Of a DNA stretch of 34,873 bases, positions 1 through 16,486 are shown piece by piece. The notes under the pieces were generated by a model that was not told where the DNA came from, searched no databases, and worked only from the letters and a program-made list of their open reading frames with translations. The stretch is from assembly GCA_043809245.1 (NCBI GenBank), contig JAZDDZ010000027.1, forward strand, positions 1-34,873, read 5' to 3'. The DNA comes from Candidatus Iainarchaeum sp. GTDB taxonomy: Archaea > Iainarchaeota > Iainarchaeia > Iainarchaeales > JAZDDZ01. The translations under genes and the position numbers were made by a program. How positions within the stretch are numbered: the first letter of the stretch is position 1; each line of letters starts with the position of its first letter.

Positions 1-138
1 AACTGAAAAGTTAGGTTTAAAACCACGAAACTCATATAAACTTTTAAGTGGCAATAAATTACGGTAGCCCATGTTTATCGCCTCCAAAACGATAACTGGG
101 CAACCAATTTTTATCCTAAATCAGCAGAAGAGGGAAAA

Positions 139-1014
139 ATAGAAAAAGGGAAATGGGCCAAGTACAATGGCAATTATTCGGCGTACGTGAAAAGCCGTGA
201 AGCCGCGTTTGAAGCCCAAAAAACGGCTTACGAACTTGAAAACAAATACATTGCAATTGAAAAAGACAAGATTGCGCGCATTGGAAAAAGCCCCAAGAAA
301 GTCAAACAAGGGCAGTATCGTGAAAAATTACTTGAAAAACGTGAAATCCTTGAAAAACCCGACTTGGACCAATCAAAATTCAGAACACGCTTTGATGCCT
401 CGCCAATTAATGCAAGCGTGATTTTAGAGCTAAAGGGCCTGACTGTCGGATACCAAAAGCCATTAATTTCCAATATCAACCTAAATGTAGGCGCAGAGCA
501 GCGAATAATTTTAATTGGAGAAAACGGAATGGGTAAAAGCACTCTTTTCAAAACCATTGAAGGGCGCATCCCCCCCATTTCAGGAAAAATAATTTTGGAT
601 TCACAGGTAAAACTCGGTTACGTGGACCAAGAACTAAAAGACCTGACAACCGGCGCCACATTATATGGTGAAATATATTTTTTGCTGAAAGATTTGGCTA
701 AAACGCGCCAACACTTGTCCATGATGGGGTTTATTGAAAACGACGAAGTGTTCAAGCCAATTTCCCAATTGTCCATGGGGGAAAAGTCCAGGCTCACGCT
801 GCTTAAAATTCTTATTGGCAAACCAAACTTTCTGCTGCTTGACGAGCCAACAAACCACCTTGACATTGATGCGCGCGAAATAATTGAAAAAGCATTCCTA
901 AATTATGGCGGCGCAATTTTGGCAGTTTCACACGACCGTTATTTCATTAAAAAAATTGCACAGCGCATGCTAAAAGTAAGTGATGGGTCAATCAAAGAAA
1001 TTCCCGTGAAATAA
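139..1014 (+). pseudogene. 5'-truncated ABC-F family ATPase (linker + second ATPase domain only)
   Basis: Frame reads IEKGKWAKYNGNYSAY (ABC-F linker), then GENGMGKST, LSMGE, LLLDEPTNHLD, SHDRYF. In-frame stop at 55-57 and no first ATPase domain; ORF track start is GTG 187. Confidence 0.75.
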
Positions 1015-1058
1015 AACGCAAAATGAATTTTTTAAAACTAGCCTTATAAATTTGTTTA

Positions 1059-1077
1059 TAGGCGATGATGAGGTTAA
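1059..1077 (+). repeat. att-like core copy A (taGGCGATGATGAGGTTAA)
   Basis: 18/19 identical to 13249-13267; TTTAA at 1031-1035. Confidence 0.85.
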
Positions 1078-1121
1078 TTCGGGTTATTGCCGAATAACGC
1101 TATTTGTGCTAACAATAATTT

Positions 1122-1146
1122 TTTAAATATTGATGCTCATCAATAT
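1122..1146 (+). promoter_or_regulatory. TATA box overlapping an ArsR/SmtB-type operator
   Basis: TTTAAATA at 1122-1129; perfect inverted repeat ATATTGATG-ct-CATCAATAT at 1127-1146 just upstream of arsR. Confidence 0.8.
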
Positions 1147-1151
1147 GTTTT

Positions 1152-1427
1152 ATGGCTAAAAATAATGCCTTAGAAGTGTTAAAGGCTCTTTCTGATGGGA
1201 CGAGACTTGAAATAGTTAGGCTGCTTTTGGATGGGGAAAGGTGCGTGTGCCAGATTTTTCCACAGGTTAGAAGAACACAGTCAACTGTTTCAATCCAATT
1301 GGCAACGCTTGAAAAAGCAGGTTTAATTAAATCAAGAAGGGAAGGCAAGAAAATTTTTTACAAAATAACTGACAATAGAGTAAAAAAAATCCTTAAAGCA
1401 GCAGAATCTAAATTAGAAGGGGACTAA
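1152..1427 (+). CDS. arsR: ArsR/SmtB family metalloregulator
   Basis: KALSDGTRLEIV, CVC motif in helix 3, QSTVSIQL, SRREGK wHTH. Confidence 0.92.
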   Translation: MAKNNALEVLKALSDGTRLEIVRLLLDGERCVCQIFPQVRRTQSTVSIQLATLEKAGLIKSRREGKKIFYKITDNRVKKILKAAESKLEGD

Positions 1428-1428
1428 A

Positions 1429-2535
1429 ATGAAAGAAAAAAACTTGTTTTTGTTGCTGGCGGCACTGTTTCTGGCGTTCTACTTCATGCCGGTTGGAAGC
1501 CAATGGCTTGACAATGCCTTGCTAAGCGGTTTTGCATTGTTGCACGAGTACGCAACACAGCATATTTTAACCTGCCTTGTTCCGGCATTTTTTATTGCGG
1601 GGGCTATCGCGGTTTTTGTAAAAAAACAGGCGGTTCTTAAATACCTGGGCGGAAAAGCAAAACCATATGTTTCCTACACGATTGCCTCTGTTTCAGGCGC
1701 GGTTCTTGCAGTCTGCAGCTGCACAATCCTTCCATTGTTTGCAGGAATTTATAAAAGAGGAGCAGGGCTTGGACCGGCAACAGCATTCCTTTACTCGGGG
1801 CCGGCAATAAACATTGCAGCAATTTTTTTAACAGCAAGCGTTTTGGGCTTTAAGATTGGATTAGCGAGGGCAGTTTCAGCAATTGCTTTAGCAGTGCTTG
1901 TAGGAGTGACAATGGCTTTCCTTTTCAGGGAAAAAAGCGCAAAACAAGAGATTGCAATAGAAGAAGAAACAGGGCAAAAAACCTCAAAAACAGCAATCGG
2001 AGTGTTCTTTGCTTCAATGGTCGGAATCCTAATAGTGAACGGCCTGCAGATTGACTTGACAATAAAATGGGGGCTAATGGGTTTCCTTGCCCTGATTGCG
2101 GCAGCGGTTGTTTTGCTGAAATTTAAAAGCGAGACAAGAGACCAGTGGCTTGCAGAAACATGGAGCATAGGCAAACTCCTTATCCCCTATTTATTCATCG
2201 GTGTGTTCATTGTCGGATTCATAATGCCGTTGATTCCTGAAGAACTAATAATTCAATGGGTTGGCTCAAATACAATTCAAGCAAACCTTTTGGCATCAAT
2301 TTTTGGGGCATTCATGTATTTTTCCACACTCACTGAGGTGCCAATAATGCAGGCACTGATTGCAAAAGGGATGAATCAGGGGCCGGCACTTGCGCTGTTG
2401 CTTGCGGGCCCTTCATTGAGCCTGCCTGCAATGCTTGTAATAAGAAGCGTTTTAGGAAACAAAAAAACAATTGCATACATTGCAATAGTTGTGGTTTATT
2501 CCTCTATTGCAGGATTGATTTTTGGAATGGTTTAA
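1429..2535 (+). CDS. ArsP/DUF318-type permease
   Basis: Multi-TM protein with AVCSCTILPLFAGI, FLYSGPAIN and MYFSTLTEVPI motifs; in operon with arsR. Confidence 0.88.
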   Translation: MKEKNLFLLLAALFLAFYFMPVGSQWLDNALLSGFALLHEYATQHILTCLVPAFFIAGAIAVFVKKQAVLKYLGGKAKPYVSYTIASVSGAVLAVCSCTILPLFAGIYKRGAGLGPATAFLYSGPAINIAAIFLTASVLGFKIGLARAVSAIALAVLVGVTMAFLFREKSAKQEIAIEEETGQKTSKTAIGVFFASMVGILIVNGLQIDLTIKWGLMGFLALIAAAVVLLKFKSETRDQWLAETWSIGKLLIPYLFIGVFIVGFIMPLIPEELIIQWVGSNTIQANLLASIFGAFMYFSTLTEVPIMQALIAKGMNQGPALALLLAGPSLSLPAMLVIRSVLGNKKTIAYIAIVVVYSSIAGLIFGMV

Positions 2536-2546
2536 GGAGGAATTAA

Positions 2547-2774
2547 ATGAAAATAGAAATATTGGGAACCGGTTGCCCGAAATGCAAGCAACTTGAAGCA
2601 AATGCCAGAAAAGCTCTGGAAGAGACCGGGAAAAAAGCTGAAATAGTAAAAGTGACAGACATAAACAAAATAATTGAAGCAGGAGTAATGGCAACCCCCG
2701 CTTTAGCTGTTGACAGAAAAATCGTTTGCAGCGGCAGAATCCCTACAACAGACGAAATCAAAAAATGGCTATGA
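2547..2774 (+). CDS. Small redox-active disulfide protein (MTH895-like thioredoxin)
   Basis: MKIEILGTGCPKC ... GVMATPAL; RBS AAGGAGG. Confidence 0.9.
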   Translation: MKIEILGTGCPKCKQLEANARKALEETGKKAEIVKVTDINKIIEAGVMATPALAVDRKIVCSGRIPTTDEIKKWL

Positions 2775-2779
2775 AACAA

Positions 2780-2830
2780 TAATTTTAAGGCATTAACACC
2801 ATACGATACATTAGGCAATAATGATGTTAT
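2780..2830 (+). repeat. Module-end repeat + att-like core copy B
   Basis: 2780-2809 is identical (30/30) to 7108-7137; core 2814-2830 GGCAATAATGATGTTAT is 14/17 to 13251-13267. Confidence 0.85.
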
Positions 2831-3051
2831 AGTCTGAAATTTGGTGTGTGTTACCGCCAACTTTTTAATTATCTTTAGCCCTAATCTGGGTGGTCTTAGG
2901 CAGATATTTTAAACGTTGCTCCGCATGGAGAAAACCATTTGAAAACGATAAAAACCAGAAAAATTCTTTACATTGACAAAATTGTCTTCATAAATAGCAA
3001 CCGAAACATTTATATTTTGTGTTACTCATAATTAACATAAATTATTAATTT

Positions 3052-4323
3052 ATGTTTGGTGAATTTAGCATGGCTACAATCCAAGAAAGGCTTGTTGAAT
3101 TCAATTCGTGGTGGAAGGAAACATTTACATTAGAATTCAGGCCTAGAAAGGTTTACGGCGAAATGCGCAAGTTTCATAAACAGCCACAAATAGTCGCATT
3201 AACTGGTTTAAGGCGTGTCGGCAAGTCCACTTTACTCAAAAAGATTGTACAAGACGAAATTGCTGCAGGAAGAGACCCAAAAGCAATAATGTATTTTTCT
3301 TTTGACGAATTCAAGGACACTGAACCAAGCGAAATACTCAAAGCATATAATGAAATCACTGGAAAAGATGCTTCAAAAGAAAAAACTATTTTATTGTTTG
3401 ATGAAGTACAAAAGGTAACTGATTGGGAGAATAAAATCAAGACAATTTATGACCTTTACAAAGGAAAAGCGAAAATTTACATTTCGGGCTCTGAATCCTT
3501 GTTTGTAAAAACAAAGGCAAAGGAAACGCTCGCAGGAAGAATATTTTACTTCAAGGTTGAAACACTGTCTTTTATAGAATACCTTGACTTCAAACAAAAA
3601 AAGTTTGAACCAACCGCGCTTTACCAGAAAGAATTGTTCAAAGAATTCAAGGAGTTTATTCAATCACAGGGTTTCCCGGAGCTCGTTAATGTAACTGACC
3701 GGGAGATAATCCAAAAATACATTCAAGAAGGCATTGTTGAGAAAATAGTTTACAGGGATATTCCAACAATTTACGCTATCAAAGAAACCAGTGTTTTGGA
3801 ATCATTGCTCAAGCTTTTAATGGAAGAACCGGGTCAAATTATTGACATGCAAACCTTGGCTTCTCAATTTAAGACCACGCGCCAAACAATTTCCAATTAT
3901 TTTTCATTCCTTGAACAAGCATTTCTAATCAGAAAATTGTACAACTATTCCCCAAACAAAAGAAAAGTTGAAAGAAAACTCAAAAAATACTACTCCGCTA
4001 TACTATCGCCCTCGCTCACATTCAAAGAAGACACAATTTCACAATCAAAAGTCTTGGAATGCGTAGTAGCCAATAATCTCAATGCGGAGTTTTTTTGGCG
4101 AGACCAGTACAAGAACGAAGTGGACATAATCCTTACAGAGCCGGCACTAATTCCAATAGAAGTAAAACTTTCTGAAACAAAATCAAAAAGCTTGGAACTA
4201 TTCATGCAAAAATTCAAGGCAAAAAAAGGTTATATCATAACACAAAACCAAGAAATAAAAGAAAAAGGCAAAGTGGAAGTAATGCCCGCTTTCAAGTACT
4301 TCTTGGTCCGTCAGACAAAGTGA
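3052..4323 (+). CDS. AAA+ ATPase (AAA_14 + DUF4143)
   Basis: GLRRVGKST, LFDEVQ, SGS, ETLAGR, C-terminal EVD...IPIEVK; alternative start 3070. Confidence 0.9.
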   Translation: MFGEFSMATIQERLVEFNSWWKETFTLEFRPRKVYGEMRKFHKQPQIVALTGLRRVGKSTLLKKIVQDEIAAGRDPKAIMYFSFDEFKDTEPSEILKAYNEITGKDASKEKTILLFDEVQKVTDWENKIKTIYDLYKGKAKIYISGSESLFVKTKAKETLAGRIFYFKVETLSFIEYLDFKQKKFEPTALYQKELFKEFKEFIQSQGFPELVNVTDREIIQKYIQEGIVEKIVYRDIPTIYAIKETSVLESLLKLLMEEPGQIIDMQTLASQFKTTRQTISNYFSFLEQAFLIRKLYNYSPNKRKVERKLKKYYSAILSPSLTFKEDTISQSKVLECVVANNLNAEFFWRDQYKNEVDIILTEPALIPIEVKLSETKSKSLELFMQKFKAKKGYIITQNQEIKEKGKVEVMPAFKYFLVRQTK

Positions 4324-4549
4324 TTTATATGTGGAAAAACTGAATAACAAATTTTGGCGGGAACTAGAAAGGCGTTTTGGCAAAGCAAAACTTAATGTAG
4401 TTTTAAAATTGGGAAAATCTTATTTTAATGGTATTAAGGGGTGAAAAGAAATGAAACCGAGATTAAGTCTGTGAAAAGGCAGATTGACGATATTCTCGAT
4501 GACCTGAATAAAAGCAAGAAGTATGTGTACGCGGTTTACAGGTGAAACA

Positions 4550-4786
4550 ATGCCTGTGAAATTCAAGTATTGCCCGAAGTGCGCTTCACTGGACTTAATC
4601 AGCATTGACGGAAAAGACTACTATTTTTGCAGGAGCTGCGAATACAAGGGCTGCGTGCTGGAAGACACACCGGATTATATCGAAGCGTACAAAAACGGGT
4701 TTCCGGAAGATTCTTTCAAGCATTCCAAGGCCAGGGCTCCCCTGGAAAAGCATAAACTGTTAAGAAAAGAGTCAACAGACAATTAA
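4550..4786 (+). CDS. Small zinc-ribbon protein
   Basis: CPKC...CRSC; RBS AGGTGA at 4540-4545 supports ATG 4550. Confidence 0.6.
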   Translation: MPVKFKYCPKCASLDLISIDGKDYYFCRSCEYKGCVLEDTPDYIEAYKNGFPEDSFKHSKARAPLEKHKLLRKESTDN

Positions 4787-5104
4787 TTGGGGGCAGTTGT
4801 ATTGGATGAATTCGTGAGCAAGTATTTGGTTAAGGGCATTGACAATCTTTCAAAAGAGGAATTGAATGAATTGGGCGACCATTTTCTTCGGAAAGTCCTG
4901 ACAGACATTATTTACGTGAAGGACAACTTTTTCAAAAACCCAAAAAATGAAAACGAATGGAGTGAATTCAGAAAAAACAAAGATTCTGATTACCTTTTAT
5001 CCCTGCTTATCGCTGGAACACTTATGGATGAATACAAAAAGAAAGGGACAACCACGTCTGCGCAAAAATTCTGCCATGAATGCGGCGCAAAACTGATTAA
5101 GTGA
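4787..5104 (+). CDS. Hypothetical protein, possibly a fragment (single CHECG knuckle)
   Basis: 105-aa ORF with TTG start, ending KFCHECGAKL. Confidence 0.45.
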   Translation: MGAVVLDEFVSKYLVKGIDNLSKEELNELGDHFLRKVLTDIIYVKDNFFKNPKNENEWSEFRKNKDSDYLLSLLIAGTLMDEYKKKGTTTSAQKFCHECGAKLIK

Positions 5105-5163
5105 AAGAATCCGACTTTTCACAAAAAGTCAACATTTAAATGATTTGGAGATAGTATTTTAAT

Positions 5164-6003
5164 ATGCCTAAAAGGATTCTTGCTAGAAGACCTAAGACCC
5201 CGCCAAATGATCCTTTGAAAAGACCAATTAGGAGATTAAGAAATTTTTTTATACGAAATGGTCAAGAACCAGAGATAATTGTAGAGCCTAATGGTTTGTT
5301 AATAAAAACACAGGAAACACGGGAAGTGGTTGAAGACAGTGGGTTTAATATCGAGGAAACTCACCAATTGCCTGGACATTATTTCATTCCGAATTATAGC
5401 CTGGGTTTTGTCATGATGCATCCAAAAATATTACTTGAAAAGAATGTTCAATGGAAAGCAAAAGAAAGTTTCATGAAAGGAGAACAATACAGATATTACT
5501 CTGGAAGAGTTCCAAGCGCTAAAGGGAGAACTAAAAATGGACAGCCAACAGAAAGACCTAGAAAAACTGTTTTCCGTAAAGACTATATACTTAGAGACCG
5601 CAGTCAGCGCACGCGTCCGCTTGGAGAACCACTGGCCATCGCAGAAGCAAGAAACTCAACTATCTTTGGCGACTCAAAGCCAATAAAGATTAATGATGAG
5701 GTAAGTTTTCGAATACCAAAATACTATGCAGCAACACCACACGGAGTACTACTGGAGAGAATAGATAGGCCAACATTTAATGAATTTGTCGATAAATTGC
5801 CTGAAAAAGACAAAGGGCGTGTTAAAGAAAACTATCGCCAACTTTTAAATTTTCTTAAAGATAAAAAAAATTATGGGGGGGCATTTTGGATTCCTTTAAA
5901 GCCGCCAAATAGTTCGAGGGCAGGGGTCAGACAAGTTTACATTGACTCGTATAACAGAAAAACAGGAGAAACAAAATTCATAATTACAGACCTTAAAAAA
6001 TAA
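5164..6003 (+). CDS. Hypothetical basic protein
   Basis: 279-aa ORF, TTTAAA ~25 nt upstream; weak kinase-N-lobe-like segment PKYY...VLLERIDRPT. Confidence 0.7.
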   Translation: MPKRILARRPKTPPNDPLKRPIRRLRNFFIRNGQEPEIIVEPNGLLIKTQETREVVEDSGFNIEETHQLPGHYFIPNYSLGFVMMHPKILLEKNVQWKAKESFMKGEQYRYYSGRVPSAKGRTKNGQPTERPRKTVFRKDYILRDRSQRTRPLGEPLAIAEARNSTIFGDSKPIKINDEVSFRIPKYYAATPHGVLLERIDRPTFNEFVDKLPEKDKGRVKENYRQLLNFLKDKKNYGGAFWIPLKPPNSSRAGVRQVYIDSYNRKTGETKFIITDLKK

Positions 6004-6204
6004 GGTGAATGGTGAACGTTCAACTATAATTGTCTAAAACACAATTTTGCCAAAGCCCTAACCCTCCAATCCCTCTGCTTTTTTGAGCGGGCGGAATCTC
6101 TGCACAAAAAACCCAGATTCAGAATCCAAATTGTAATCCCTTTTTGTGCAAAGCAAAAGAATCCGATACATTTATTAATACCTACAGCGATTATGTAATA
6201 CGAT

Positions 6205-6345
6205 ATGCCGTATAGAAGTGGAGTGACTACAATCCAGTTGAGCCCGGCTACAAGGGACAAATTGAAAGAGTTGGGCAAGAAGGGCGAAAGCTACGATCAG
6301 ATAATAAACAAACTTGTGGATTTCTGGTCAAAGAAGAAAAAATGA
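6205..6345 (+). CDS. 46-aa RHH/antitoxin-like DNA-binding protein, copy 1 (not in ORF track)
   Basis: MPYRSGVTTIQLSPATRDKLKELGKKGESYDQIINKLVDFWSKKKK; 30/46 identical to 12684-12824. Confidence 0.85.
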   Translation: MPYRSGVTTIQLSPATRDKLKELGKKGESYDQIINKLVDFWSKKKK

Positions 6346-6348
6346 ATT

Positions 6349-6441
6349 TTAGCTTAAGAGCTCTTTTAGTTTGTTGGACAGCAATTTATTGCGTTCTTCA
6401 AAGAACTGTTTGAAATTATTGAAATCGAGATTCACATTAGA
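6349..6441 (-). pseudogene. 3'-terminal gene fragment resembling DUF262/GmrSD-family C-termini
   Basis: Minus strand reads NVNLDFNNFKQFFEERNKLLSNKLKELLS*; family assignment is from recalled resemblance only. Confidence 0.4.
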
Positions 6442-6616
6442 TTGGAGAATCGTTATTACACTTTTAGGATGGTCAACTTTAATCAAGGGAATTATGAAAA
6501 TTGGGTTCCCGGAAGTGATTCATAAACAAGCACAGAGATTCAAAACGAAACAGGCAATTAGCACTGTTTTCATGATGCTCTTGGGTGCATGGCTAATCTG
6601 GATGAGCTTTGTCTAA
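6437..6616 (+). pseudogene. 3'-terminal fragment of a small membrane protein
   Basis: LDWRIVITLLGWSTLIKG...two TM helices; its apparent N-terminus is the antisense of another gene end. Confidence 0.5.
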
Positions 6617-6729
6617 TGGCATGAACGCTGCATTAGACACGCCCATAAAAGCGGAGAAAGCCCAAAAAACCATTAATTTTATTACATCATTACTATTGAA
6701 TACAATAGGAGATTATTCGGACGATGATT

Positions 6730-7110
6730 ATGAAAATCCAGCTTTTGTATATTTTGGATTGCCCCTGGTGCGTGAAAACAAAGGAACTGCTTAAGGGCAG
6801 CTTAAAAGAGCTTGGCACAAAGGCTGATGTTGAAGAAATCCTAATTGACTCTGATGAAAAAGCCAAAAAATACAAGTTTGTTGGCTCGCCAACAATAAAG
6901 ATTGATGGAAAGGATATCCAGGAAACAATTAGCAAGGGCCGGTGCCTGCCCTGCGAAGAAATAGCCGAACAAGACAAGGGAGCAACTGAATTCATTAAAC
7001 AGGAATGCAAGTGCGGCTGCAGAACCTATTCCTACAAAGGGAAGCAGTATCCCTACCCGCCAAAGGCCATGATTAAGGAAGCCGTCAAGAAATCGCTCAA
7101 AAACCGTTAA
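6730..7110 (+). CDS. Cys-rich thioredoxin-fold protein (DUF2703-like), copy 1
   Basis: CPWC, GSPTIKIDG, CLPC, CKCGCRTY; 107/117 identical to 12843-13232. Confidence 0.85.
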   Translation: MKIQLLYILDCPWCVKTKELLKGSLKELGTKADVEEILIDSDEKAKKYKFVGSPTIKIDGKDIQETISKGRCLPCEEIAEQDKGATEFIKQECKCGCRTYSYKGKQYPYPPKAMIKEAVKKSLKNR

Positions 7111-7158
7111 TTTTAAGGCATTAACACCATACGATACTTACGGCAATGATGAGGTCAA
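7108..7158 (+). repeat. Module-end repeat + att core copy C (putative attL)
   Basis: Core 7142-7158 GGCAATGATGAGGTCAA is 16/17 to 13251-13267 and lies 64 nt before the integrase start. Confidence 0.9.
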
Positions 7159-7191
7159 GCACTATAGTAATGTATAGGCATTACAGTAGAG

Positions 7192-7227
7192 TTTAAAAAG
7201 AGATAGCAGCACCATAGTATCTATGGT
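7192..7227 (+). promoter_or_regulatory. Integrase promoter with palindromic operator over the start codon
   Basis: TTTAAAAA at 7192-7199; ACCATAG-tat-CTATGGT at 7211-7227 contains ATG 7223. Confidence 0.65.
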
Positions 7228-8515
7228 AACGAAAGACGAATACAACCTGAACCACACGCTCAACAGGCTCAATAATTCTGGCATGCTGCCTTACAACAAA
7301 AGCAAGGCACTCGAATTCTATAACGAAAAGGTTGCCCAGGGCATCAGAAAGACAAGCTACACCTATGTTCTGCGCATTCTCATTGAATTAGGCGAGCACT
7401 TCAAGGACAAAAAGTTCGAAGACATTCCAAAGAGCGAAATGGTTTCCTTCTTCAACAACTTGAAGCCAAAAGACAAGGTTTTGAAAACAAGATGCGGGCC
7501 TGTTGTAACAATCCCAATCGAATCCTACAGCGAAGGCACTTTATGGCAATACAAGGCAGCTGTCAAAATGTTTTACAAATGGCTCTTTGGAAAAGAGAAT
7601 GACGAAACCCCGTCGGACGCAGTCCGCTGGATAAAGAAAGCAGCTAATGGCAACGGAAACGGCTATGATAAATTCAGGAAAGAAATCCTTACAGCAGAAG
7701 AAATGCTCAAAATATTGAACGCCGCAAAGAACGCCCGCAACAAAGCCATTATTGCAATCTTGTGGGAGTACGGCCTGCGAGCTTCTGAATTATTGAACAT
7801 GAAAAAACCCGATTTGAAAATTGCAGAGAATTACATTGAGTTTGAAGTTAATGGCAAGACTGGAAAAAGGCAAGTCATTCTGGTTGAAAGCAAGCCGTTC
7901 CTTGAAGCCTGGCTCGCAGAACTCGAAGAAAAGAAATCCCAAATCCCCAAGCAGCTGCAGGATTACATCTGGCTTGCGTTCTCCTCAAGAGGCTACCGCA
8001 AAAAAGCAATTGGAACACAACTCATTTCCAGGGATGCCCTGAACGTGAAACTTAAATGGATTGCAAAAGCAGCTGGCATTGATAAGCGGGTTTGGACTCA
8101 TGGCTTTCGGCACAGCTCCGCAACAAAAGATGCGGTAAAAGGATACAATGAAGCAAAACTCAGGGCAAAATACGGCTGGAGCAACAAAAGCAACATGCCT
8201 TCTGTTTACGTTCACTTTGCAAACCAAAATTTGAAGAAAGAGATTTTGATTGAGAAGGGCCTTTGGAAACCTGACAAAAAAGAGCAGGAACCGCTCTCAA
8301 CGCAAACAGTTATTTGCCCTTTCTGCTCTGTTCAGAACATGAAAGAAAACGACTATTGTAGCAAGTGCGGAAAGCCCCTCAAAATAGAGCAGCTGAAAGC
8401 AATGGAAAAGAAATCCGAGCAGCTGAACCTGCTGCAAGAAATAATAGCGCAAGAGCTTGAAAAGAAAGGCGTTGACCTGGAACAAATGGCAAAGATACTG
8501 GCGGGAAAAGGCTGA
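7223..8515 (+). CDS. int: Tyrosine recombinase/integrase with C-terminal zinc ribbon
   Basis: GLRASEL (R), GKTG (K), HGFRH (HxxR), YGWS (W), SVYVH (Y); CPFC...CSKC. Confidence 0.93.
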   Translation: MVTKDEYNLNHTLNRLNNSGMLPYNKSKALEFYNEKVAQGIRKTSYTYVLRILIELGEHFKDKKFEDIPKSEMVSFFNNLKPKDKVLKTRCGPVVTIPIESYSEGTLWQYKAAVKMFYKWLFGKENDETPSDAVRWIKKAANGNGNGYDKFRKEILTAEEMLKILNAAKNARNKAIIAILWEYGLRASELLNMKKPDLKIAENYIEFEVNGKTGKRQVILVESKPFLEAWLAELEEKKSQIPKQLQDYIWLAFSSRGYRKKAIGTQLISRDALNVKLKWIAKAAGIDKRVWTHGFRHSSATKDAVKGYNEAKLRAKYGWSNKSNMPSVYVHFANQNLKKEILIEKGLWKPDKKEQEPLSTQTVICPFCSVQNMKENDYCSKCGKPLKIEQLKAMEKKSEQLNLLQEIIAQELEKKGVDLEQMAKILAGKG

Positions 8516-8630
8516 CTTTACAGTTTTCCAATAAATTCCCAAACTTGCCAAAAAGCAGCAGTAAATTGCTTATAATGCATGATTTTGTAAACTTTTGTGC
8601 AGTATATCGCTTTTAGTGAACACTTTTTAA

Positions 8631-8691
8631 TGCTCAATGTATTGAGCAATATTGCACATTATTGCTCATTGTAATAAGCAATGTTTAAATA
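8631..8691 (+). promoter_or_regulatory. Tandem palindromic operators + TATA upstream of the AAA-DUF4143 gene
   Basis: TGCTCAAT-gt-ATTGAGCA (8631-8648), ATTGCTCATT-gt-AATAAGCAAT (8661-8682), TTTAAATA (8684-8691). Confidence 0.6.
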
Positions 8692-8713
8692 CTAGTTTGC
8701 GCATTATTTTATC

Positions 8714-9976
8714 ATGATTTCAAAGAGTATTTTGAGGACAGTTATTGCAGACCAACTGAAAGAGATGGAATCATTAAAGGATTCTGTGCCAAGAACTGTT
8801 TTTCCCACTGCCGTTTCTTATAGCGGAGCTTCTGCTTTCGTTGTCAAGGGAGTGAGGAGATGCGGCAAGAGCACCTTGCTGAAGCAGCTGATTAAGGCAA
8901 AATTTGAAAACGATTTTTTTTACTTTAACTTTGATGATGAAAGAATTGAAGGATTCAAGTCTGAAGACTTTCAGCCGCTAATGGAAACACTGATTGAGGC
9001 TTTTGGAGAAAAAAAGAACGTTTTCTTTGATGAAATCCAGAATATTAAAGGCTGGGAATTGTTTGTCAACAGGATACTAAGGCAGGGTTACAAAGTTTTC
9101 ATTACAGGTTCTAATGCAAACCTGTTAAGCAAGGAACTCGGAACACACTTGACAGGAAGGCACGTGGATTTGGAGCTTTATCCTTTTTCTTTCGCTGAAT
9201 TCTTGAAAGCAAAGAAGATAGAAATCCCAAAAAAAGGAATTTATTCCACTGAACAAAAAGCATTGCTTTCAAAGGAATTCAAGGAATACTTTTTAAAAGG
9301 CGGAATGCCGGAGGTTGTTGTTTTCTCAAACGAAGCAGTCCTGACAGCAATACTCACAGACATAATCCGAAAAGACATTTCCGAAAGATATGACATTAGA
9401 AAGCCAAGCGAACTCAAAACAGTGTTAAAATTCTTAATAGCCAATTCTGCAAACCCCATAACTTACAGGTCAATAAAAAACAATTTTGACATTCAAAGTG
9501 CCAATACCATCCAAAAATACATTGAATATGCTGAAGAAACATACCTTGTCTTCACTGTCCGAAAGCTCGAAAAGAAAATAAAACGTTTCGACAAAAACCC
9601 CAAAAAAATTTACTGCATTGACAACGGCATAATAATAAAAAACACGCCAAGCATTACAGAAAAAAAAGGCGCCCTATTAGAAAACATGGTTGCAGTTCAC
9701 TTGAAAAGGCTTGGAAAAGAATTCTATTACTTCAAAACAAGAAACAGCGAAGCCGACTTTGTGGTTCCAACAGAAAAACTGGCCATTCAAGTATGTTATG
9801 AACTCGACAACAAAAACAAAGAACGCGAAACAAAAGGGCTCATTGAAGCAATGCACGAAACCAAAGCAACCAGCGGCCTAATACTGACACTTGAACAAGA
9901 ACAAGAAACAACCATCCAAAACAAAAAAAGAATCATAAAACCAGCCTGGCAATGGTTATTGGAAAAACAACCCTGA
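8714..9976 (+). CDS. AAA+ ATPase (AAA_14 + DUF4143)
   Basis: GVRRCGKST, FFDEIQ, TGSN, LTGR, GGMPE, KIYCIDNG, EADFV. Confidence 0.92.
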   Translation: MISKSILRTVIADQLKEMESLKDSVPRTVFPTAVSYSGASAFVVKGVRRCGKSTLLKQLIKAKFENDFFYFNFDDERIEGFKSEDFQPLMETLIEAFGEKKNVFFDEIQNIKGWELFVNRILRQGYKVFITGSNANLLSKELGTHLTGRHVDLELYPFSFAEFLKAKKIEIPKKGIYSTEQKALLSKEFKEYFLKGGMPEVVVFSNEAVLTAILTDIIRKDISERYDIRKPSELKTVLKFLIANSANPITYRSIKNNFDIQSANTIQKYIEYAEETYLVFTVRKLEKKIKRFDKNPKKIYCIDNGIIIKNTPSITEKKGALLENMVAVHLKRLGKEFYYFKTRNSEADFVVPTEKLAIQVCYELDNKNKERETKGLIEAMHETKATSGLILTLEQEQETTIQNKKRIIKPAWQWLLEKQP

Positions 9977-9980
9977 TGCT

Positions 9981-11228
9981 ATGCACAGTTTATTGAAAAA
10001 ACTCTCGGAACTATTCGGCAAAAAGATTCCGAGAGCAAATTACCTGATTGAATTCAGGTTTCACGGCTATGCAAAAAGATACGCAAGAGAACTAAGCGAG
10101 CAAATCTCGCACAAGTTTCACGTAAAGCAAGTCGTGAGAAAAGGTCGGCCGCCGCACATAACCTTGTTTGGCGGCTTTTCCTGCGGCAACGAAAAAGAGC
10201 TCGTTCAAAAATTCATTAAAATCTGCAAAAACTTTGACTTGATAAAATTCAAGCTGAACGATTTGGGGCATATTGAGAACAAGGTCATTTTCATTGACGT
10301 TGAACCTTCCCAGGAATTAAAAGAGCTGCGATTGCAATTAGCCAAAGAACTTATTCCTGTTTGCGAAGCAAAAGAATGGGACAAGGAACAAGAGTTCGTG
10401 TTTCACGCAACGCTTGCACTCAAAGACCTCGAAAACAAGTTTGACAAAATCTGGGAATACCTGCAAAACATGGAAAAACCAAACATCGAACAATATCTCC
10501 TCAGGCTAACACTGTTAAGGAATGGCAAAATCCTGAAGGAATACGACTTCATCCAAAGAAGGTTATTGAGAAGGGATGAAGCCTTAAGCAAGAAAACACT
10601 GAAAACCACAATAGGATATTTGGGCGAAATAAAAGAAAACGGCAGAACAAGAATCATTGAAGAAAATTCCGACAAAGTTTTCCTGATCAGCGATTTGCAC
10701 CTGGACCACGAAAACATAATCAAATACTGCCACAGGCCATTCAAAAATGCCGAAGAAATGAACAAAACAATTGTAGAAAATTGGAACTCAACTGTTGGCA
10801 AAAATGACGCTGTTTACTTTTTGGGTGACATGGCTTTCGGCAAAGGCAGCAGAAAAGCAAGTTATTGGATAAAACAATTGAACGGCAAAATAACATTCAT
10901 TGAAGGAAACCACGAAGAAGTTGGGAACATCAAAAGCTATTCCACTGCAGAAGACGTTTTCCTGAAATATAAGGGAAAAGAATTCCTGCTGGTTCACGAT
11001 CCTGCCCTGAAACCAAAAAACTGGGACGGCTGGACAATTCACGGCCACAAGCATAACAATCATTTGGAAGAATTTCCCTTCATAAACGGCGAAAGAAAAA
11101 CAATCAACGTAAGCTGCGAGCTGCTCGACTACAAGCCAATAAACCTGAACGAAATAATGCCCCGACTGGGTACTGTGAAGTATTGGAGAACAATAAACGA
11201 CAAGCCAATCAAAAACACCGGGCTGTAA
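9981..11228 (+). CDS. 2H phosphoesterase (2'-5' RNA ligase-like) fused to a calcineurin-like metallophosphoesterase
   Basis: Two HxT motifs (PHITL, FHATL), then SDLH, LGD, GNHE, VHDP, HGHKH. Confidence 0.88.
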   Translation: MHSLLKKLSELFGKKIPRANYLIEFRFHGYAKRYARELSEQISHKFHVKQVVRKGRPPHITLFGGFSCGNEKELVQKFIKICKNFDLIKFKLNDLGHIENKVIFIDVEPSQELKELRLQLAKELIPVCEAKEWDKEQEFVFHATLALKDLENKFDKIWEYLQNMEKPNIEQYLLRLTLLRNGKILKEYDFIQRRLLRRDEALSKKTLKTTIGYLGEIKENGRTRIIEENSDKVFLISDLHLDHENIIKYCHRPFKNAEEMNKTIVENWNSTVGKNDAVYFLGDMAFGKGSRKASYWIKQLNGKITFIEGNHEEVGNIKSYSTAEDVFLKYKGKEFLLVHDPALKPKNWDGWTIHGHKHNNHLEEFPFINGERKTINVSCELLDYKPINLNEIMPRLGTVKYWRTINDKPIKNTGL

Positions 11229-11230
11229 AT

Positions 11231-11434
11231 ATGGAAACTTTCAAAGGAAAAGTCAGAAGAATCTTCAATAACGGCAAGCGCGTTCACGTTGCCAGAAGCC
11301 ACTCGCTCTGCGAAATCGACAACGAAATTCCCGACTTAAAAATCGGCGATTTGGTCCTCTGCCAATGGGATAAAACAATCAAAAAAATCGACAAAAACCA
11401 AACAGGCCTAAAAACATATTCAGCAACTGAATAA
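11231..11434 (+). CDS. Small hypothetical protein (67 aa, beta-rich)
   Basis: ATG 2 nt after the upstream stop; METFKGKVRRIF...LKIGDLVLCQW. Confidence 0.6.
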   Translation: METFKGKVRRIFNNGKRVHVARSHSLCEIDNEIPDLKIGDLVLCQWDKTIKKIDKNQTGLKTYSATE

Positions 11435-11532
11435 TTCAGTAAGTGAATACAAATTTTGGTTAGTGCTTATTTTCCCATTTAACAAGGTCGCGAATGTGCG
11501 CCAATTCCCAGGCGCGGAACTCTTCTTTCATC

Positions 11533-12027
11533 TCAGCAATTTCCTTTTTGGTCGGCTTCTTCCTGGCTCCAGCCGAATTTGCTGATTAATTGCTCCCTTG
11601 AAGGCCTGCTGGCCTGGACAAATTCCTTGATGTCCTGGACAGGGTCTTTTTCTATTTCGTTCAGTTTTTTCTCGTCAAGCCAGGCAACAAGGATTTTTCT
11701 TTTATCGCCATAATTCTGCCTGAGTTCAGTCTTTACTTCAGGATAGCGCTGTTTCAAGGCAGTGAACAAGCGCTTCTTTTGCGTTGAATCATACAACCCA
11801 AGCTTGGCACAGTCATAAGAATTGAACTTTCCGGCCTGCCTGATTATTTCAAAAGCAACGTCAGCAAGCTTTGCAGTCTTGCCCAAATAGGTTTCATCAA
11901 TAATTGCATCAAAATTCTCTATGTAAGAAGCAATTTTCTGGCTCAATTCTGAAACATCCTTCTGCATGGAGAGCAATTGGTTACGCATTGCTTCCCTGCT
12001 CAAATGCTTTGCGTTCTCTGCGCTCAT
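11533..12027 (-). CDS. Hypothetical protein with N-terminal coiled coil
   Basis: 164-aa ORF coupled by ATGA overlap to the upstream 52-aa ORF. Confidence 0.7.
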   Translation of the reverse strand: MSAENAKHLSREAMRNQLLSMQKDVSELSQKIASYIENFDAIIDETYLGKTAKLADVAFEIIRQAGKFNSYDCAKLGLYDSTQKKRLFTALKQRYPEVKTELRQNYGDKRKILVAWLDEKKLNEIEKDPVQDIKEFVQASRPSREQLISKFGWSQEEADQKGNC

Positions 12028-12182
12028 TGCTGACCAGCTCCGTCGCTTCTGGCAGCAATGCTGCTCTTGTCCACTACAGTCCTACCGAGCTTGATTTCAC
12101 TGATGACTATTTTGTTCTCTGTCTCTTCCAGGTTGTTTCCTTGAAGCCTATAACCGTTTTTCAGAATAAGCTTTGTTCTCAT
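12024..12182 (-). CDS. 52-aa protein, possible Sm/Hfq-like fold (not in ORF track)
   Basis: MRTKLILKNGYRLQGNNLEETENKIVISEIKLGRTVVDKSSIAARSDGAGQQ; stop overlaps the next ATG. Confidence 0.6.
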   Translation of the reverse strand: MRTKLILKNGYRLQGNNLEETENKIVISEIKLGRTVVDKSSIAARSDGAGQQ

Positions 12183-12444
12183 CTCTCATTGCCCCCACAG
12201 GCCCGAATATCAGGTAAATTGTCCGCTCGCTTTCCCGTTCAATCCCACCCAACTCGACAGCATTTTCACCAGGCAGGAAAGAGCAGTTAATGTTTGATTT
12301 TGGCGCTTCGTGAAAGAAAATCAGCTGGCCACTGATTCCTTGTTCTGCAAGATTTATTTGCTCGCCTCTCCGCCCCTTGACCTCAAGCACAACAAAAGTG
12401 TTTGAATTCTTAAGCGGATAAACAGTCTTTCCAATTATCTGCAA
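12148..12444 (-). CDS. Hypothetical protein
   Basis: TTG start preceded by purine-rich GGAGAGGAGAGTGA; first gene of a three-gene minus-strand operon. Confidence 0.55.
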   Translation of the reverse strand: MQIIGKTVYPLKNSNTFVVLEVKGRRGEQINLAEQGISGQLIFFHEAPKSNINCSFLPGENAVELGGIERESERTIYLIFGPVGAMRDENKAYSEKRL

Positions 12445-12504
12445 TTTTGGTCACTCTCCTCTCCAAATGATTATGAAAATTTTCTGTTCTCACTCATGCG
12501 AACC

Positions 12505-12598
12505 CCTTAATATACTTTACTGGGGCACATTTTCGGGCCGCAACACCCCCGCACAGAAAAATCTGCCTATACATCCCCCAACCACCTTAATATACTTT
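12505..12598 (-). promoter_or_regulatory. Duplicated BRE/TATA (AAAGTATATTAAGG x2)
   Basis: CCTTAATATACTTT at 12505-12518 and 12585-12598, upstream of the minus-strand operon. Confidence 0.55.
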
Positions 12599-12683
12599 TA
12601 TTTTGAGAGGAAAAAATACGAACTAATGCACTATGATTAAAAATAGTTACTATAGTTTGTTCTTTATAAAGAGGTTTTGAAAA

Positions 12684-12824
12684 ATGCCGAGCAGAAACGG
12701 AGTAACCACAATCCAACTGGAAATGAAAACACGCGACAGGCTAATGCGCATCGGAAAAAAAGGCGAAACATACGACGAAATAATCAACAAGCTAATTGAC
12801 CAGCACGTGAAAAGGAAAAAGTAA
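12684..12824 (+). CDS. 46-aa RHH/antitoxin-like DNA-binding protein, copy 2 (not in ORF track)
   Basis: MPSRNGVTTIQLEMKTRDRLMRIGKKGETYDEIINKLIDQHVKRKK; RBS GAGGT. Confidence 0.85.
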   Translation: MPSRNGVTTIQLEMKTRDRLMRIGKKGETYDEIINKLIDQHVKRKK

Positions 12825-12842
12825 CTGTGATGAGGGCCAATT

Positions 12843-13232
12843 ATGAAAATTCAGCTTTTGTACATTTTGGATTGCCCTTGGTGCGTTAAAACAAAGGAAC
12901 TGCTTAGGAGCAGCTTGAAAGAGCTCGGCGCAAAAGCAGATGTTGAGGAAATCCTGATTGATTCGGATGAAAAGGCCAAAAAATACGGATTTGTCGGCTC
13001 GCCGACTATAAGGATTGATGGAAAGGATATCCAGGAAACAATTAGCAAGGGCAAGTGCCTTCCTTGCGAAGAAATGGCCGAACAAAGCAAGGGCGCAACT
13101 GAATTCATTAAACAAGAATGCAAATGTGGTTGCAGAACCTATTCTTATAACGGAAAACAGTACCCCTACCCACCGAAGGAAATGATAAAAGAAGTCATTA
13201 ATGCAGCCAAAACCAAAGGCTTTAATCAATAA
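12843..13232 (+). CDS. Cys-rich thioredoxin-fold protein (DUF2703-like), copy 2
   Basis: CPWC, GSPTIRIDG, CLPC, CKCGCRTY. Confidence 0.85.
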   Translation: MKIQLLYILDCPWCVKTKELLRSSLKELGAKADVEEILIDSDEKAKKYGFVGSPTIRIDGKDIQETISKGKCLPCEEMAEQSKGATEFIKQECKCGCRTYSYNGKQYPYPPKEMIKEVINAAKTKGFNQ

Positions 13233-13249
13233 TCTCTATACATTACAGT

Positions 13250-13309
13250 AGGCAATGATGAGGTTAACACCATCTGAATTAAATGTGGAATCAACTCAAC
13301 TCTGAGCCT
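13250..13309 (+). ncRNA. Box C/D methylation-guide sRNA; its 5' end is att core copy D (attR)
   Basis: Terminal stem AGGC/GCCT; box C ATGATGA 13255-61; 12-nt guide GGTTAACACCAT; D' CTGA 13274-77; degenerate C' ATGTGGA 13283-89; 12-nt guide ATCAACTCAACT; D CTGA 13302-05; T-run downstream. Confidence 0.88.
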
Positions 13310-13394
13310 GCTTTTTGTTTTAGGCTTTTTTTAGCCTAATGAAAAGGCAAGCCTTTTATTTCTTTTACAGCGGGACATATTTGAGGCGTTTTGC

Positions 13395-13898
13395 ATGGAG
13401 AAAACTTTTTCGCAGAGGCTGGATGAATGCGTTGACTTGGCTGACATTTTTGAATTGGTTAAGGCAGCAGGAGAAGAGGTTTTAGGCAGGAGCAGGGCTG
13501 GCTTAATGCTTGGATTGGCGAACATGGGTGGAAGCAGGCGCTTTTTTTTGGGCGCGTATTACCCTGTTGATTCCAACATGATTGTGGTTAACAGCTTTCC
13601 ATTGAAAATGATTAAGGAAAAGAATCCAGTGCTGTTCAAGCCCTACATTTTTCACATCCTATTGCACGAATACCTTCACAGCCTGAATTACCTTGACGAG
13701 GGCAGTGTGAGGGAGCTGACTTATATTATCTGTTCAAAGCTTTTCGGCAAAGAGCACCTTACTGCTAAAATGTCAAAGGACATAAGCAAGTTCATGCCGC
13801 AGTTGGCTGATGAAGCCGTTGAATGGGTGCCGGAAAAAGAGCCGCAGATTTTTGTGGTGGAAGGCTTTGATAAGGGTCATTTGACTTACGTGAGTTGA
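13395..13898 (+). CDS. Putative zinc metallopeptidase-like protein
   Basis: LLHEYLHSL (HExxH) followed by DE. Confidence 0.75.
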   Translation: MEKTFSQRLDECVDLADIFELVKAAGEEVLGRSRAGLMLGLANMGGSRRFFLGAYYPVDSNMIVVNSFPLKMIKEKNPVLFKPYIFHILLHEYLHSLNYLDEGSVRELTYIICSKLFGKEHLTAKMSKDISKFMPQLADEAVEWVPEKEPQIFVVEGFDKGHLTYVS

Positions 13899-13929
13899 GA
13901 AATAGGGCTTTTATTGAAAAATAGCGGGT

Positions 13930-14619
13930 TTATTCTTTTTTCATCTGTTCTTTTGCCTGCTGAATGAGGCTTTTGATTGTCTGGAATGCTTCAGTTGCGT
14001 GCTTTTCGTTGACCATGAAGTGCAGTTCGGGTGGAGCGCTGATTATTTCAATGCTGATTCCTTTTTGCGCGAGCTTTGAAGCAATTTCCGCGATTATTCC
14101 ATAGGTTTGCACTGCTTCCTTTGGCTGCCTGATTGAAACAATTGCGTTCTGGTGCGAGGCATCCATTACCTCTGATTCAATTAGGTCAAGCAAGGGCTCA
14201 AGCCTGTGCTTTTTCAGCAAAACCATTATCTGGCCTGCGCCTTCAACCACTATTCGCACTTCCCCTGTGTGCCAGTCGGTTTCCCTTAAAAGCTCCTCGA
14301 TTTTTTTCGCAGATTTATCGTTTCTCTTGATTAGCGCAAAGGACATGTCGTCCTGCATTGAAAGCGTTGAATTCGCAAAAATATGCGCATAGCTGTTTGA
14401 AAACTTTTTACCGCCAATTTCATCAGCAAAACGCTTGATTGCAACGACAATTGATTCCTCTTTGACTTTTTTGCCGAGCTTTTTCTCAATTTCCGGCTTA
14501 AGGCTTCTGGCCAAAGCAGAATAGTTGACTAACCCGTCAGCCAAAGAAGTCTTGGTGTAAGGGTTCAGGTCTATAAGAGTTCTGACTATTGACGAAAGAG
14601 AAGACTCATTCCCCGCCAT
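13930..14619 (-). CDS. ACT-domain protein with N-terminal HTH-like region (putative amino-acid-responsive regulator)
   Basis: GLVNYSALAR...SIVVAIKRF N-terminus; C-terminal ACT-like GIIAEIASKLAQKGISIEIIS. Confidence 0.8.
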   Translation of the reverse strand: MAGNESSLSSIVRTLIDLNPYTKTSLADGLVNYSALARSLKPEIEKKLGKKVKEESIVVAIKRFADEIGGKKFSNSYAHIFANSTLSMQDDMSFALIKRNDKSAKKIEELLRETDWHTGEVRIVVEGAGQIMVLLKKHRLEPLLDLIESEVMDASHQNAIVSIRQPKEAVQTYGIIAEIASKLAQKGISIEIISAPPELHFMVNEKHATEAFQTIKSLIQQAKEQMKKE

Positions 14620-14824
14620 AAATGAAAATCCTTACAAAATATATAAAAACCTAACATTTTTCTCGGCTTTTGTAATGAACTGGTCATTTTTCCTTTTAAG
14701 GCGCTTTTTCTGGCTTCCAAAACCCAAAATTCAGTCATTTTACCAGTTTTTTGGCTTTCCTGCGTTTTTAGCGGATTTTCTGGTCGCAAGGTATATAAAG
14801 GACCTAGGGGGAATGTCTGAGGGT

Positions 14825-14947
14825 ATGAAGAAAATGAGGCCTAGAATGAAAAGTGGTTTTCCCGTTACGGTTGGCGGGACACAGTACTTTCTGCAAAGGA
14901 AGCGCAAAGTGAAACCAGTAAACAGGACAGACGGTTTTTCTGTATGA
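14825..14947 (+). CDS. Possible 40-aa basic peptide
   Basis: TATATAAA at 14792-14799 suits a leaderless ATG at 14825; no recognisable homology. Confidence 0.3.
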   Translation: MKKMRPRMKSGFPVTVGGTQYFLQRKRKVKPVNRTDGFSV

Positions 14948-14982
14948 GTTCGGTTAAGGCAAAAAATTCAGGGGAAAGAAAA

Positions 14983-15156: not shown

Positions 15157-15169
15157 GGAGGTGTGGGAG

Positions 15170-16485: not shown

Positions 16486-16486
16486 C

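Follow-up and report, generated by a model that had tools for sequence, protein, structure and literature searches.

The 34,873-bp contig JAZDDZ010000027.1 of the archaeon Candidatus Iainarchaeum sp. very probably carries site-specific integrative modules that have accumulated in tandem at the 5' end of a conserved C/D box small RNA (sRNA) gene. The window analyzed here is this entire contig, one of 55 in a 1.48-Mb genome, and DNA further to the left is therefore unreadable from it. We observed a short core sequence repeated along the window, integrase genes linked to this core, matched arms at the two ends of integrase-bearing elements, breakpoints between genomes at the cores, and an identity of the modules between genomes that far exceeds that of the surrounding backbone.

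The pattern GGCRATRATGAKGT matches the window four times, always on the plus strand (positions 1061, 2814, 7142, and 13251), and none of 100 dinucleotide-preserving shuffles contained any match. Across the 1.48-Mb genome, a near-identical 16-nt pattern occurs at these four places only. The repeated core comprises 14 nt, with the exact form GGCRATGATGAGGT, and the core-to-core spacings of 1753, 4328, and 6109 bp delimit modules 1, 2, and 3. Cores 2 and 3 are preceded by the same 30-mer (2780-2809 and 7108-7137, 0 mismatches), which had no match in the shuffles, and among the three window modules only module 3 contains an integrase gene (Pfam Phage_integrase match). The string TTAACACCAT recurs at 13264-13273 within the D' guide of the sRNA. 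An initial annotation, made from the DNA letters, had described the core spacings, the identical 30-mer, the single integrase, and the recurrence of TTAACACCAT in the sRNA guide; all were confirmed in the window, and the likeness of TTAACACCAT to the guide is real.

The C/D box sRNAs consist of C, D', C', and D boxes, a terminal stem, and 12-nt guides, all of which could be read in the gene that begins at the last core (Table 1). Across 11 aligned homologues, neither the boxes nor the stem nor the two guide cores vary, and the 81-nt sRNA region is present in 23 of the 41 genomes sampled from the order. The gene is conserved across the order and probably important. A search of the sRNA region against Rfam returned no family at the gathering score; below this threshold, more than 40 C/D-box families, archaeal ones included, matched at full length on the same strand (best 30.8 bits, E 2.7e-4). 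The sRNA appears to guide 2'-O-methylation at two 23S rRNA sites. In the genome's own 23S rRNA, the D' guide can form 9 Watson-Crick and 2 G-U pairs at large-subunit (LSU) positions 2618-2629, and the D guide 10 Watson-Crick pairs and 1 G-U pair at 2647-2658, the two sites being 29 nt apart. These sites emerged only once G-U pairing was permitted and 9-10 Watson-Crick pairs were accepted as sufficient, and a search of the genome found no perfect or one-mismatch complement of the 12-nt guides in rRNA. The fifth-nucleotide rule locates the methylation target of a C/D guide; for the D' guide it points to the U before GUUAA, which by comparison with Escherichia coli would correspond to U2552 of the A-loop.

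On the 3' side of the sRNA gene, we observed partial synteny across families (window 13395-16485 and loci L031, L042, L009, and L012), including a small open reading frame (ORF), a DUF7523/ACT protein, and RNase HII, and the 5' side is variable. This combination is as expected if insertion takes place only at the 5' side of the gene.

The integrase gene has cores on both sides; it begins 81 bp downstream of the left core of module 3 and lies 6.1 kb from the sRNA gene. Its product matches PF00589 with 68.9 bits over residues 155-334 (gathering cut-off 27.1, E 6e-19), and residues R186, K212, H293, R296, W319, and Y329 are invariant across 8 aligned relatives. Tyrosine recombinases share the catalytic motif R-K-H-R-H/W-Y, and we read the six invariant residues as a putative R-K-H-R-W-Y set. 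The best-scoring family was NCBIfam XerA_Arch (NF040815), at 91.3 bits (cut-off 220), and a PDB search gave a XerC-like/XerA chain as its top match (1.7e-9). The protein is thus XerA-like, but with its score below the cut-off it was not assigned as a XerA orthologue; it has extra N- and C-terminal regions.

We scanned one genome per species for relatives of the integrase, which were found in metagenome-assembled genomes (MAGs) of Candidatus Iainarchaeum and Micrarchaeota. All ten relatives that reach 36% identity and whose upstream DNA could be read carry a core 81-86 bp before the gene. Among the relatives with 27-35% identity, a same-strand tRNA gene lies 9-80 bp upstream in 8 of 17. Archaeal integrases use tRNA genes, a few protein-coding genes, and intergenic sites. 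The core upstream of these ten close relatives, together with the tRNA genes upstream of 8 of the 17 distant ones, indicates that the clade switched its target: judged from these sequences, a tRNA-targeting integrase family contains a clade retargeted to the sRNA gene. One further locus (L076, on the same contig as G095:C18) combines the archaeal core and integrase in a contig labelled as a Chloroflexi bacterium MAG, probably a binning error.

Module 3 (7142-13250) is a genuine autonomous integrative element. Its right arm of approximately 16 bp (13230-13246, -21 to -5 from core 4) is inverted relative to the left arm at 7167-7183 (+26 to +42 from core 3), and a circular form would therefore bear an arm-core-arm attachment site (attP). 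The left end of the integrase element shows 96% identity over 255 nt to genome G040 and 95% to the metagenome contig L071. G105 holds a homologous element of 12.6 kb, bounded by a core on one side and the intact sRNA gene on the other; it shares its right end with the window element. The attachment layout, with cores as direct repeats and the integrase gene beside one of them, was also found in G105, G023, and G134, whose integrase elements (loci L047, L032, and L034) have the same arm geometry built from different self-matching sequences. The arm sequences thus vary by element subtype yet covary between both ends. An inverted-repeat score of at least 24 was reached by all 3 integrase-bearing modules among the 32 modules scored, and by 20 of 962 cross-genome pairings. 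The DUF7557 gene of module 3 (12684-12824) is 87% identical at the nucleotide level to its counterpart in the G105 element and 80% in that of G023, and its product may serve the element as an accessory or regulatory factor; the adjacent DUF2703 gene is missing from the homologous G105 element.

The locus L034 (G134:C20, cores at 2123 and 14345) contains a 12.2-kb module with an integrase and a large terminase subunit, together with a Shedu-like SduA_C protein, a proteasome-type subunit, and an insertion sequence (IS)-type DDE transposase. This module probably represents a provirus that makes use of the same core. At another locus (L041), a 432-aa ORF between a core and the sRNA was considered as an integrase and ruled out at 19% identity.

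Comparison with other genomes of the order placed most boundaries of the modules at the cores. In G040 and L071, a single core directly connects the gene for an ABC-F ATPase (86% identity) to the integrase left end (95-96%); modules 1 and 2 are missing, and both breakpoints fall inside the core. Module 1 is 87% identical to its counterpart in G172, where the homology begins exactly at the core behind unrelated DNA; its counterparts in G020 (81%) and G023 (79%) end at a core followed by the sRNA gene and by an integrase element, respectively. The left end of module 2 with its ATPase gene recurs in G050, G052, and G108 (82-86%), each time beginning at a core. Across families the modules are 79-96% identical, whereas 20 kb of backbone compared with the same genomes gave only patches of 64-73%. 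The module content thus differs between relatives, and most breakpoints coincide with cores. Both the serial insertion at one site and the presence of integrase-less modules beside one autonomous element, as initially proposed, are well supported by these comparisons.

Integrases favor conserved small-RNA genes as targets. We propose that the promoter-proximal 5' end of the sRNA gene, comprising the terminal stem and C box with the core GGCRATGATGAGGT, would serve as the chromosomal attachment site (attB), with strand exchange presumably taking place inside the core. Because each module carries a promoter copy and a core at its right end (see below), insertion would rebuild an intact sRNA gene with a replacement promoter at the integrase-distal junction, and the displaced 5' fragment of the sRNA would remain at the opposite junction. 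Serial insertions would shift older modules away from the sRNA gene, and their cores and integrase genes would decay or be deleted. The remnants would be attachment site (att)-flanked, integrase-less modules, namely modules 1, 2a, 2b (the two parts of module 2), and probably the ABC-F gene, and such modules may be moved in trans by a cognate integrase. The insertion order that follows, with the newest module next to the sRNA gene, is plausible but unproven, as the decay of the cores does not run from left to right.

We derived a consensus of module ends from the 45 nt upstream of 53 cores at 21 loci, comprising the window and 20 arrays picked for at least two cores per contig. A position-specific consensus reaches 42 nt 5' of the cores, with AAAACC near -42, TTTTAA at -31 to -26, and TA at -2/-1. 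A TATA-like pentamer starts within -40 to -24 at 45 of the 53 cores, and the entire 56-nt unit of promoter and core is homologous among the copies. Each module right end of approximately 45 nt therefore looks like a copy of the sRNA promoter region, followed by the core. From general knowledge of archaeal promoters, the position of the TATA-like box would presumably make transcription begin approximately at the sRNA's first base, and the module right ends would be expected to act as promoters. The ends in the window were scored with an nhmmer profile built from 49 ends of other genomes (Table 1), and the end before core 1 could be aligned to G040 and G054. The string TTAACACCAT belongs to the "type a" variant of the right end, and the TAACACC motif occurs in 10 of the 53 upstream flanks.

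The homology of the 56-nt unit might also be explained without any site-specific recombination, the cores being duplicated or decayed sRNA starts, or mobile promoter copies, spread by homologous recombination or duplication. Near-full-length degenerate sRNA copies do occur (G093:C20 at 2961, G097:C98 at 2985, and G098:C6 at 5758) and speak for such an origin. However, no D box or 3' stem follows core 1 or core 3 within 75 nt, and all that follows core 2 is a CTGA, 9 nt past the 14-nt core. A duplication origin would also have to accommodate the specific integrase clade 81-86 bp behind the core in ten of ten cases, and the terminase-bearing provirus L034 bounded by cores. Moreover, the contents of the modules are mutually unrelated, so the modules are not duplicates of each other. 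We consider this explanation very improbable and retain the accretion of integrative modules as the reading of the locus.

The exact core GGCRATGATGAGGT was found in 68 of the 196 genomes of the order. It matched 169 times in total, compared with a single match for the reversed control. According to the match table, 38 of the 196 genomes have at least two cores, often in same-strand arrays, and five cores lie within 15 kb in G093:C20. At the 21 loci, 53 cores are on the array strand and 1 is on the opposite strand. The 32 modules between them range from 608 to 12,222 bp (21 under 3.3 kb), and tblastn detected an integrase or its trace in 3 of the 32. Their cargo includes transporters, glycosyltransferases, DNA methylases, a ResIII helicase, MazF, AbiEii, and a Shedu-like protein. 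The genome G093 has two arrays (L042 on G093:C10; L025 on G093:C20, cores 2961-17967), one of which lies beside an intact sRNA gene; in the other, the five-core array, the outermost cores at either end are degenerate, incomplete copies of the sRNA. Hence there are secondary arrays or duplicate sRNA genes that have decayed.

Small modules with diverse cargo and a single recombination site, located beside a fixed chromosomal feature and mostly lacking an integrase, resemble an integron, in which a platform integrase captures promoterless cassettes through folded single-stranded attC sites at attI. According to the accessible portion of PMC9668308, integrons, archaeal ones included, are defined by IntI, attC, and attI, and the locus shares with the integrons described there one insertion point, varied small modules, and many arrays without a nearby integrase (cf. 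clusters of attC sites lacking integron-integrases, CALINs). Here, in contrast, we found no intI-attI platform with co-oriented cassettes downstream and no attC hairpins, which would be imperfect palindromes at the 3' end of each cassette, and the candidate assignment of the integrase as IntI failed, with 38.1 bits for TIGR02249 against a cut-off of 265. The inverted repeats join the two ends of a module rather than lying across a junction, where the inverted-repeat score averages 12.7 (n=53) compared with 13.3 for random pairings. The integrase gene is itself flanked by cores and rides on a module instead of a fixed platform. Furthermore, the modules are of mixed orientation, as only 80 of 131 mechanically called ORFs run in the direction of the cores and 51 run against it, and every module has its own promoter-like end. 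We give a true integron next to no credence, even less than duplicated sRNA starts, and the initial "integron-like" label holds as an analogy only. The initial interpretation of the locus is thus partly supported, being right in substance and wrong in label.

Could the integrase-less modules of the accretion nevertheless be mobile? Tentatively, and with more doubt than confidence, we put forward that the locus works as a cassette-exchange platform in Iainarchaeales-type DPANN archaea, integron-like in its working and differently built. The sRNA promoter with the first 14 nt of the gene would be a universal docking site, integrase-less modules of 0.6-2.4 kb, equipped with the promoter copy and core and often with matched arms, would be excised and inserted in trans by the integrase clade that switched from tRNA to sRNA genes, and the promoter copies would drive the next module in line.

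Alternatively, the integrase-less modules could be inert wreckage, which arrived in full elements and lost the integrase, so that nothing moves without an integrase of its own and sharing between genomes reflects transfer within larger elements. Integrase fragments indeed adjoin cores in G097:C18, G009:C8, G031:C1, and G103:C175, and both core 2 and the junction at 6663-6721 have decayed. Apart from the missing integrase, module 2a is laid out like module 3 (ATPase, variable genes, DUF7557), and modules 1 and 2 of the window are without clear matched arms. In addition, decay followed by accretion in three steps is the accepted route for bacterial tandems, as far as the accessible text of PMC5704250 covers it. 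Inert remnants are harder to reconcile with small integrase-less modules that keep an intact core at either end and matched arms, such as an 868-bp single-gene module in G016 and a 1762-bp module in G093, or with an integrase trace in only 3 of 32 modules. They also fit poorly with a right end that is shared, at 97-100% identity over 37-40 nt, by six genomes of four families (G097, G054, G095, G091, G172, and G099) and preceded by unrelated cargo. On balance, we find it unlikely that the modules are wreckage throughout.

Several observations weigh against the accretion of mobile modules at the sRNA gene. The selection of arrays with at least two cores biases the module sizes and the integrase-free fraction, and most genomes are fragmented metagenome assemblies in which many contigs break at a core. 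Taken over the 32 modules together, the enrichment of matched arms is not significant (Mann-Whitney p 0.12), and window modules 1 and 2 score 13 and 12, close to the random mean of 13.3. Core decay is unordered along the array, with core 1 intact and core 2 decayed. Not every boundary has its core: the ars operon of G020 has none on its left, the ArsR, ArsP, thioredoxin, and DUF2703 genes of G084 are contiguous without any core, and a type-a right end in G109 lacks its core. A separate search yielded two integrases with 39% identity (G145 and G125) and no upstream core. In viral contigs we found no integrase relative, no attP-type pattern, and no combination of core and left-end pattern; six metagenome contigs combine a core with the integrase left end, all with foreign upstream DNA and none with the type-c right end. 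Neither these viral contigs nor the six metagenome contigs revealed an attP junction or an excised circle, and no empty site in a near-identical strain was found among the genomes compared. A search for public sequencing runs that contain window 600-8600 listed none.

Module 2 is composite, made up of two or more older modules. A decayed junction within it (Table 1) matches the repeat family at 63% and is the fifth-best nhmmer hit in the genome (E 0.83), in the array and in the same orientation; this weak evidence would divide the module into 2a (from the ATPase to DUF7557) and 2b (DUF2703). The DUF2703 gene of module 2b is 85% identical to that of G109, where it directly follows a core, and 88% identical to 12840-13139 in module 3. 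We rejected module 2 as a recent duplicate of module 3, as the ATPases are only 27% identical and the DUF2703 and DUF7557 genes alone are shared. The candidate left arm of module 2a occupies the position at which the left arms of the integrase elements lie; it is weak or degraded in the window (inverted-repeat score 12) and cleaner in the ATPase modules of G050 and G052. Module 2 also holds several unknown ORFs.

The best-conserved part of module 2 is a stretch of approximately 130 nt over the DUF7557 gene (window 6141-6305), with 73-93% identity in 14 other genomes, and this 46-aa gene may encode an element-borne regulator or excision factor. A core-like motif, GGNNATGATTATG, overlaps the start codon of DUF2703 in the window (6708-6735) and in L061 of G109 (1895-1940); this motif may have been left by a former junction or may function as a leader.

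All three window modules end with a thioredoxin-fold gene, as initially noted. This does not hold as a rule, since the genes belong to an ars-like operon and to a DUF2703 cassette, and the G105 element lacks DUF2703. In L065 (G084:C56, 446-2945), the ArsR, ArsP, Thioredoxin_3, and DUF2703 genes form a single unbroken operon, which suggests that both thioredoxin-fold genes are functionally part of an ars-like transporter.

At the left side of the array, the ABC-F gene is probably itself a module. Together with core 1 it shows 89% identity to G054, where the gene sits between two cores. It is split in our assembly: by tblastn, amino acids 18-234 are encoded on contig C55 and amino acids 233-524 in the window. 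The initial expectation that the array continues to the left gains from the behavior of ABC-F as a cassette elsewhere; on the other hand, C55 has no core with up to 3 mismatches upstream of ABC-F and gave no hit with the profile of ends. By eye, we noticed a degenerate right-end-like stretch upstream of ABC-F on C55. The two contig ends at the split (window 1-135 and C55 1-141) carry unrelated sequence, suggesting that a repeated insertion element splits ABC-F and broke the assembly. Downstream of the array, two AAC/AAT-rich blocks with 12-nt periodic repeats lie between short ORFs (window 15167-15315).

Table 1. Coordinates of the array, its modules, and the target gene in the 34,873-bp window.
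Feature	Position	Strand	Remarks
ABC-F ATPase gene, C-terminal half	136-1014	+	Pfam ABC_tran, ABC_tran_Xtn
Promoter-like right end before core 1	1021-1060	+	nhmmer envelope 1021-1074, E 0.01
Core 1	1061-1074	+	Intact; repeat spans 1059-1077
ArsR regulator (module 1)	1152-1427	+	Pfam
ArsP-type permease (module 1)	1429-2535	+	Pfam
Thioredoxin_3 (module 1)	2547-2774	+	Pfam
Module 1 right end, type a	2769-2813	+	30-bp string 2780-2809; TAACACC arm; E 6.2e-5
Core 2	2814-2827	+	Degenerate, 2 of 14 positions off consensus; C box spoiled
Candidate left arm, module 2a	2843-2855	+	Inverted TAACACC-like motif, extra TG repeat; +30 to +42 from core
AAA_14/DUF4143 ATPase (module 2a)	3052-4323	+	Pfam; PADLOC PDC-S01, E 1.9e-66; candidate defence gene
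46-aa DUF7557-like protein (module 2a)	6205-6345	+	Paralogue of 12684-12824
Decayed junction	6663-6721	+	Promoter-like right end preserved; core remnant 6708-6721, 9 of 14 positions
DUF2703 thioredoxin-like gene (module 2b)	6724-7110	+	Pfam, NCBIfam
Module 2b right end, type a	7097-7141	+	30-bp string 7108-7137; E 2.3e-9
Core 3	7142-7155	+	attL of integrase element
Left end of integrase element	7156-7222	+	Inverted arm 7167-7183; TATA-like box 7192-7199 before integrase start codon
Tyrosine integrase, 430 aa	7223-8515	+	XerA-like catalytic domain; C-terminal zinc-ribbon extension
Module 3 ATPase, second PDC-S01 type	8714-9976	+	Pfam; PADLOC
2',5' RNA ligase-like and metallophosphatase domain fusion	9981-11228	+	Pfam/NCBIfam
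DUF7557 small protein (module 3)	12684-12824	+	Pfam, 1.6e-9
DUF2703 thioredoxin-like gene (module 3)	12843-13232	+	Variable slot near element right end
Right end of integrase element, type c	13206-13250	+	TATA-like box; profile E 3.9e-10
C/D box sRNA (attB-bearing gene)	13250-13309	+	Boxes and stem read directly from sequence
sRNA terminal stem	13250-13253 / 13306-13309	+	5' AGGC, 3' GCCT
Core 4	13251-13264	+	5' end (stem and C box) of C/D box sRNA
sRNA C box	13255-13261	+	ATGATGA
sRNA D' guide	13262-13273	+	12 nt
sRNA D' box	13274-13277	+	CTGA
sRNA C' box	13283-13289	+	Degenerate
sRNA D guide	13290-13301	+	12 nt
sRNA D box	13302-13305	+	CTGA

In its mechanism, the locus corresponds to classical integrative elements of the attP x attB type. 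It shares with archaeal elements in tRNA genes an integrase of the tyrosine recombinase superfamily beside one att junction, a fragment of the target gene at both ends, and the restoration of that gene. Unlike in those elements, a C/D box sRNA gene takes the place of the tRNA gene as target, the core spans its 5' end, and a copy of the promoter instead of the 3' end is supplied; the gene is rebuilt far from the integrase, and small integrase-less modules dominate the arrays. Tandem integration at one locus and loss of the integrase gene are on record for archaeal tRNA genes in the accessible part of a 2021 review of archaeal tyrosine recombinases, which makes no mention there of sRNA, snoRNA, or non-coding RNA (PMC8371274).

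In bacteria, the ssrA (tmRNA) gene is a target of phages and islands, usually at its 3' end. As in the integration into ssrA and ffs, a conserved essential small-RNA gene provides a stable attB here; those hosts are bacterial, whereas the 5' end of an sRNA gene is used in an archaeon. Integration into ffs, the 4.5S RNA gene, is described in the accessible part of PMC12540744.

Bacterial tandem accretion, as far as it is covered by the accessible text of PMC5704250, proceeds by integration, decay to an att-flanked cis-mobilizable element (CIME), and insertion of a new element at the junction retaining the target gene, and composite elements can capture their neighbors. This three-step route fits the window, where the integrase-less modules 1 and 2 keep their att sites and stand in tandem with module 3, which has the same att. 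Different from bacterial CIMEs and integrative and conjugative elements (ICEs), the host is a DPANN archaeon, the elements bear no conjugation genes, and many modules contain 1-3 genes.

A methylation-guide sRNA gene appears to be undescribed as an attB; full-text literature searches, with subscription journals outside their coverage, retrieved no description of one. The new features are the 5' target with its promoter, the retargeted integrase clade, and the order-wide dominance of small integrase-less modules. The locus offers a natural experiment in which an integrase family was retargeted from tRNA to another RNA gene, and the compact integrase with a 14-nt core and defined arms is a possible recombination tool. 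As the repeats break assemblies at the locus, the accessory content of such MAGs is probably under-reported. The presence of the core in at least 68 of 196 genomes and the range of its cargo make the site likely a main entry point of accessory genes into these genomes of approximately 1 Mb. Candidate defence genes in the modules include ATPases of the PADLOC candidate type PDC-S01, to which both ATPases of the window belong, as well as MazF, AbiEii, restriction-modification methylases, and a Shedu-like gene; transporter and metabolic genes are carried alongside them. If the locus does operate as an exchange platform, it would give very small genomes access to a shared pool of defence, transport, and metabolic genes.

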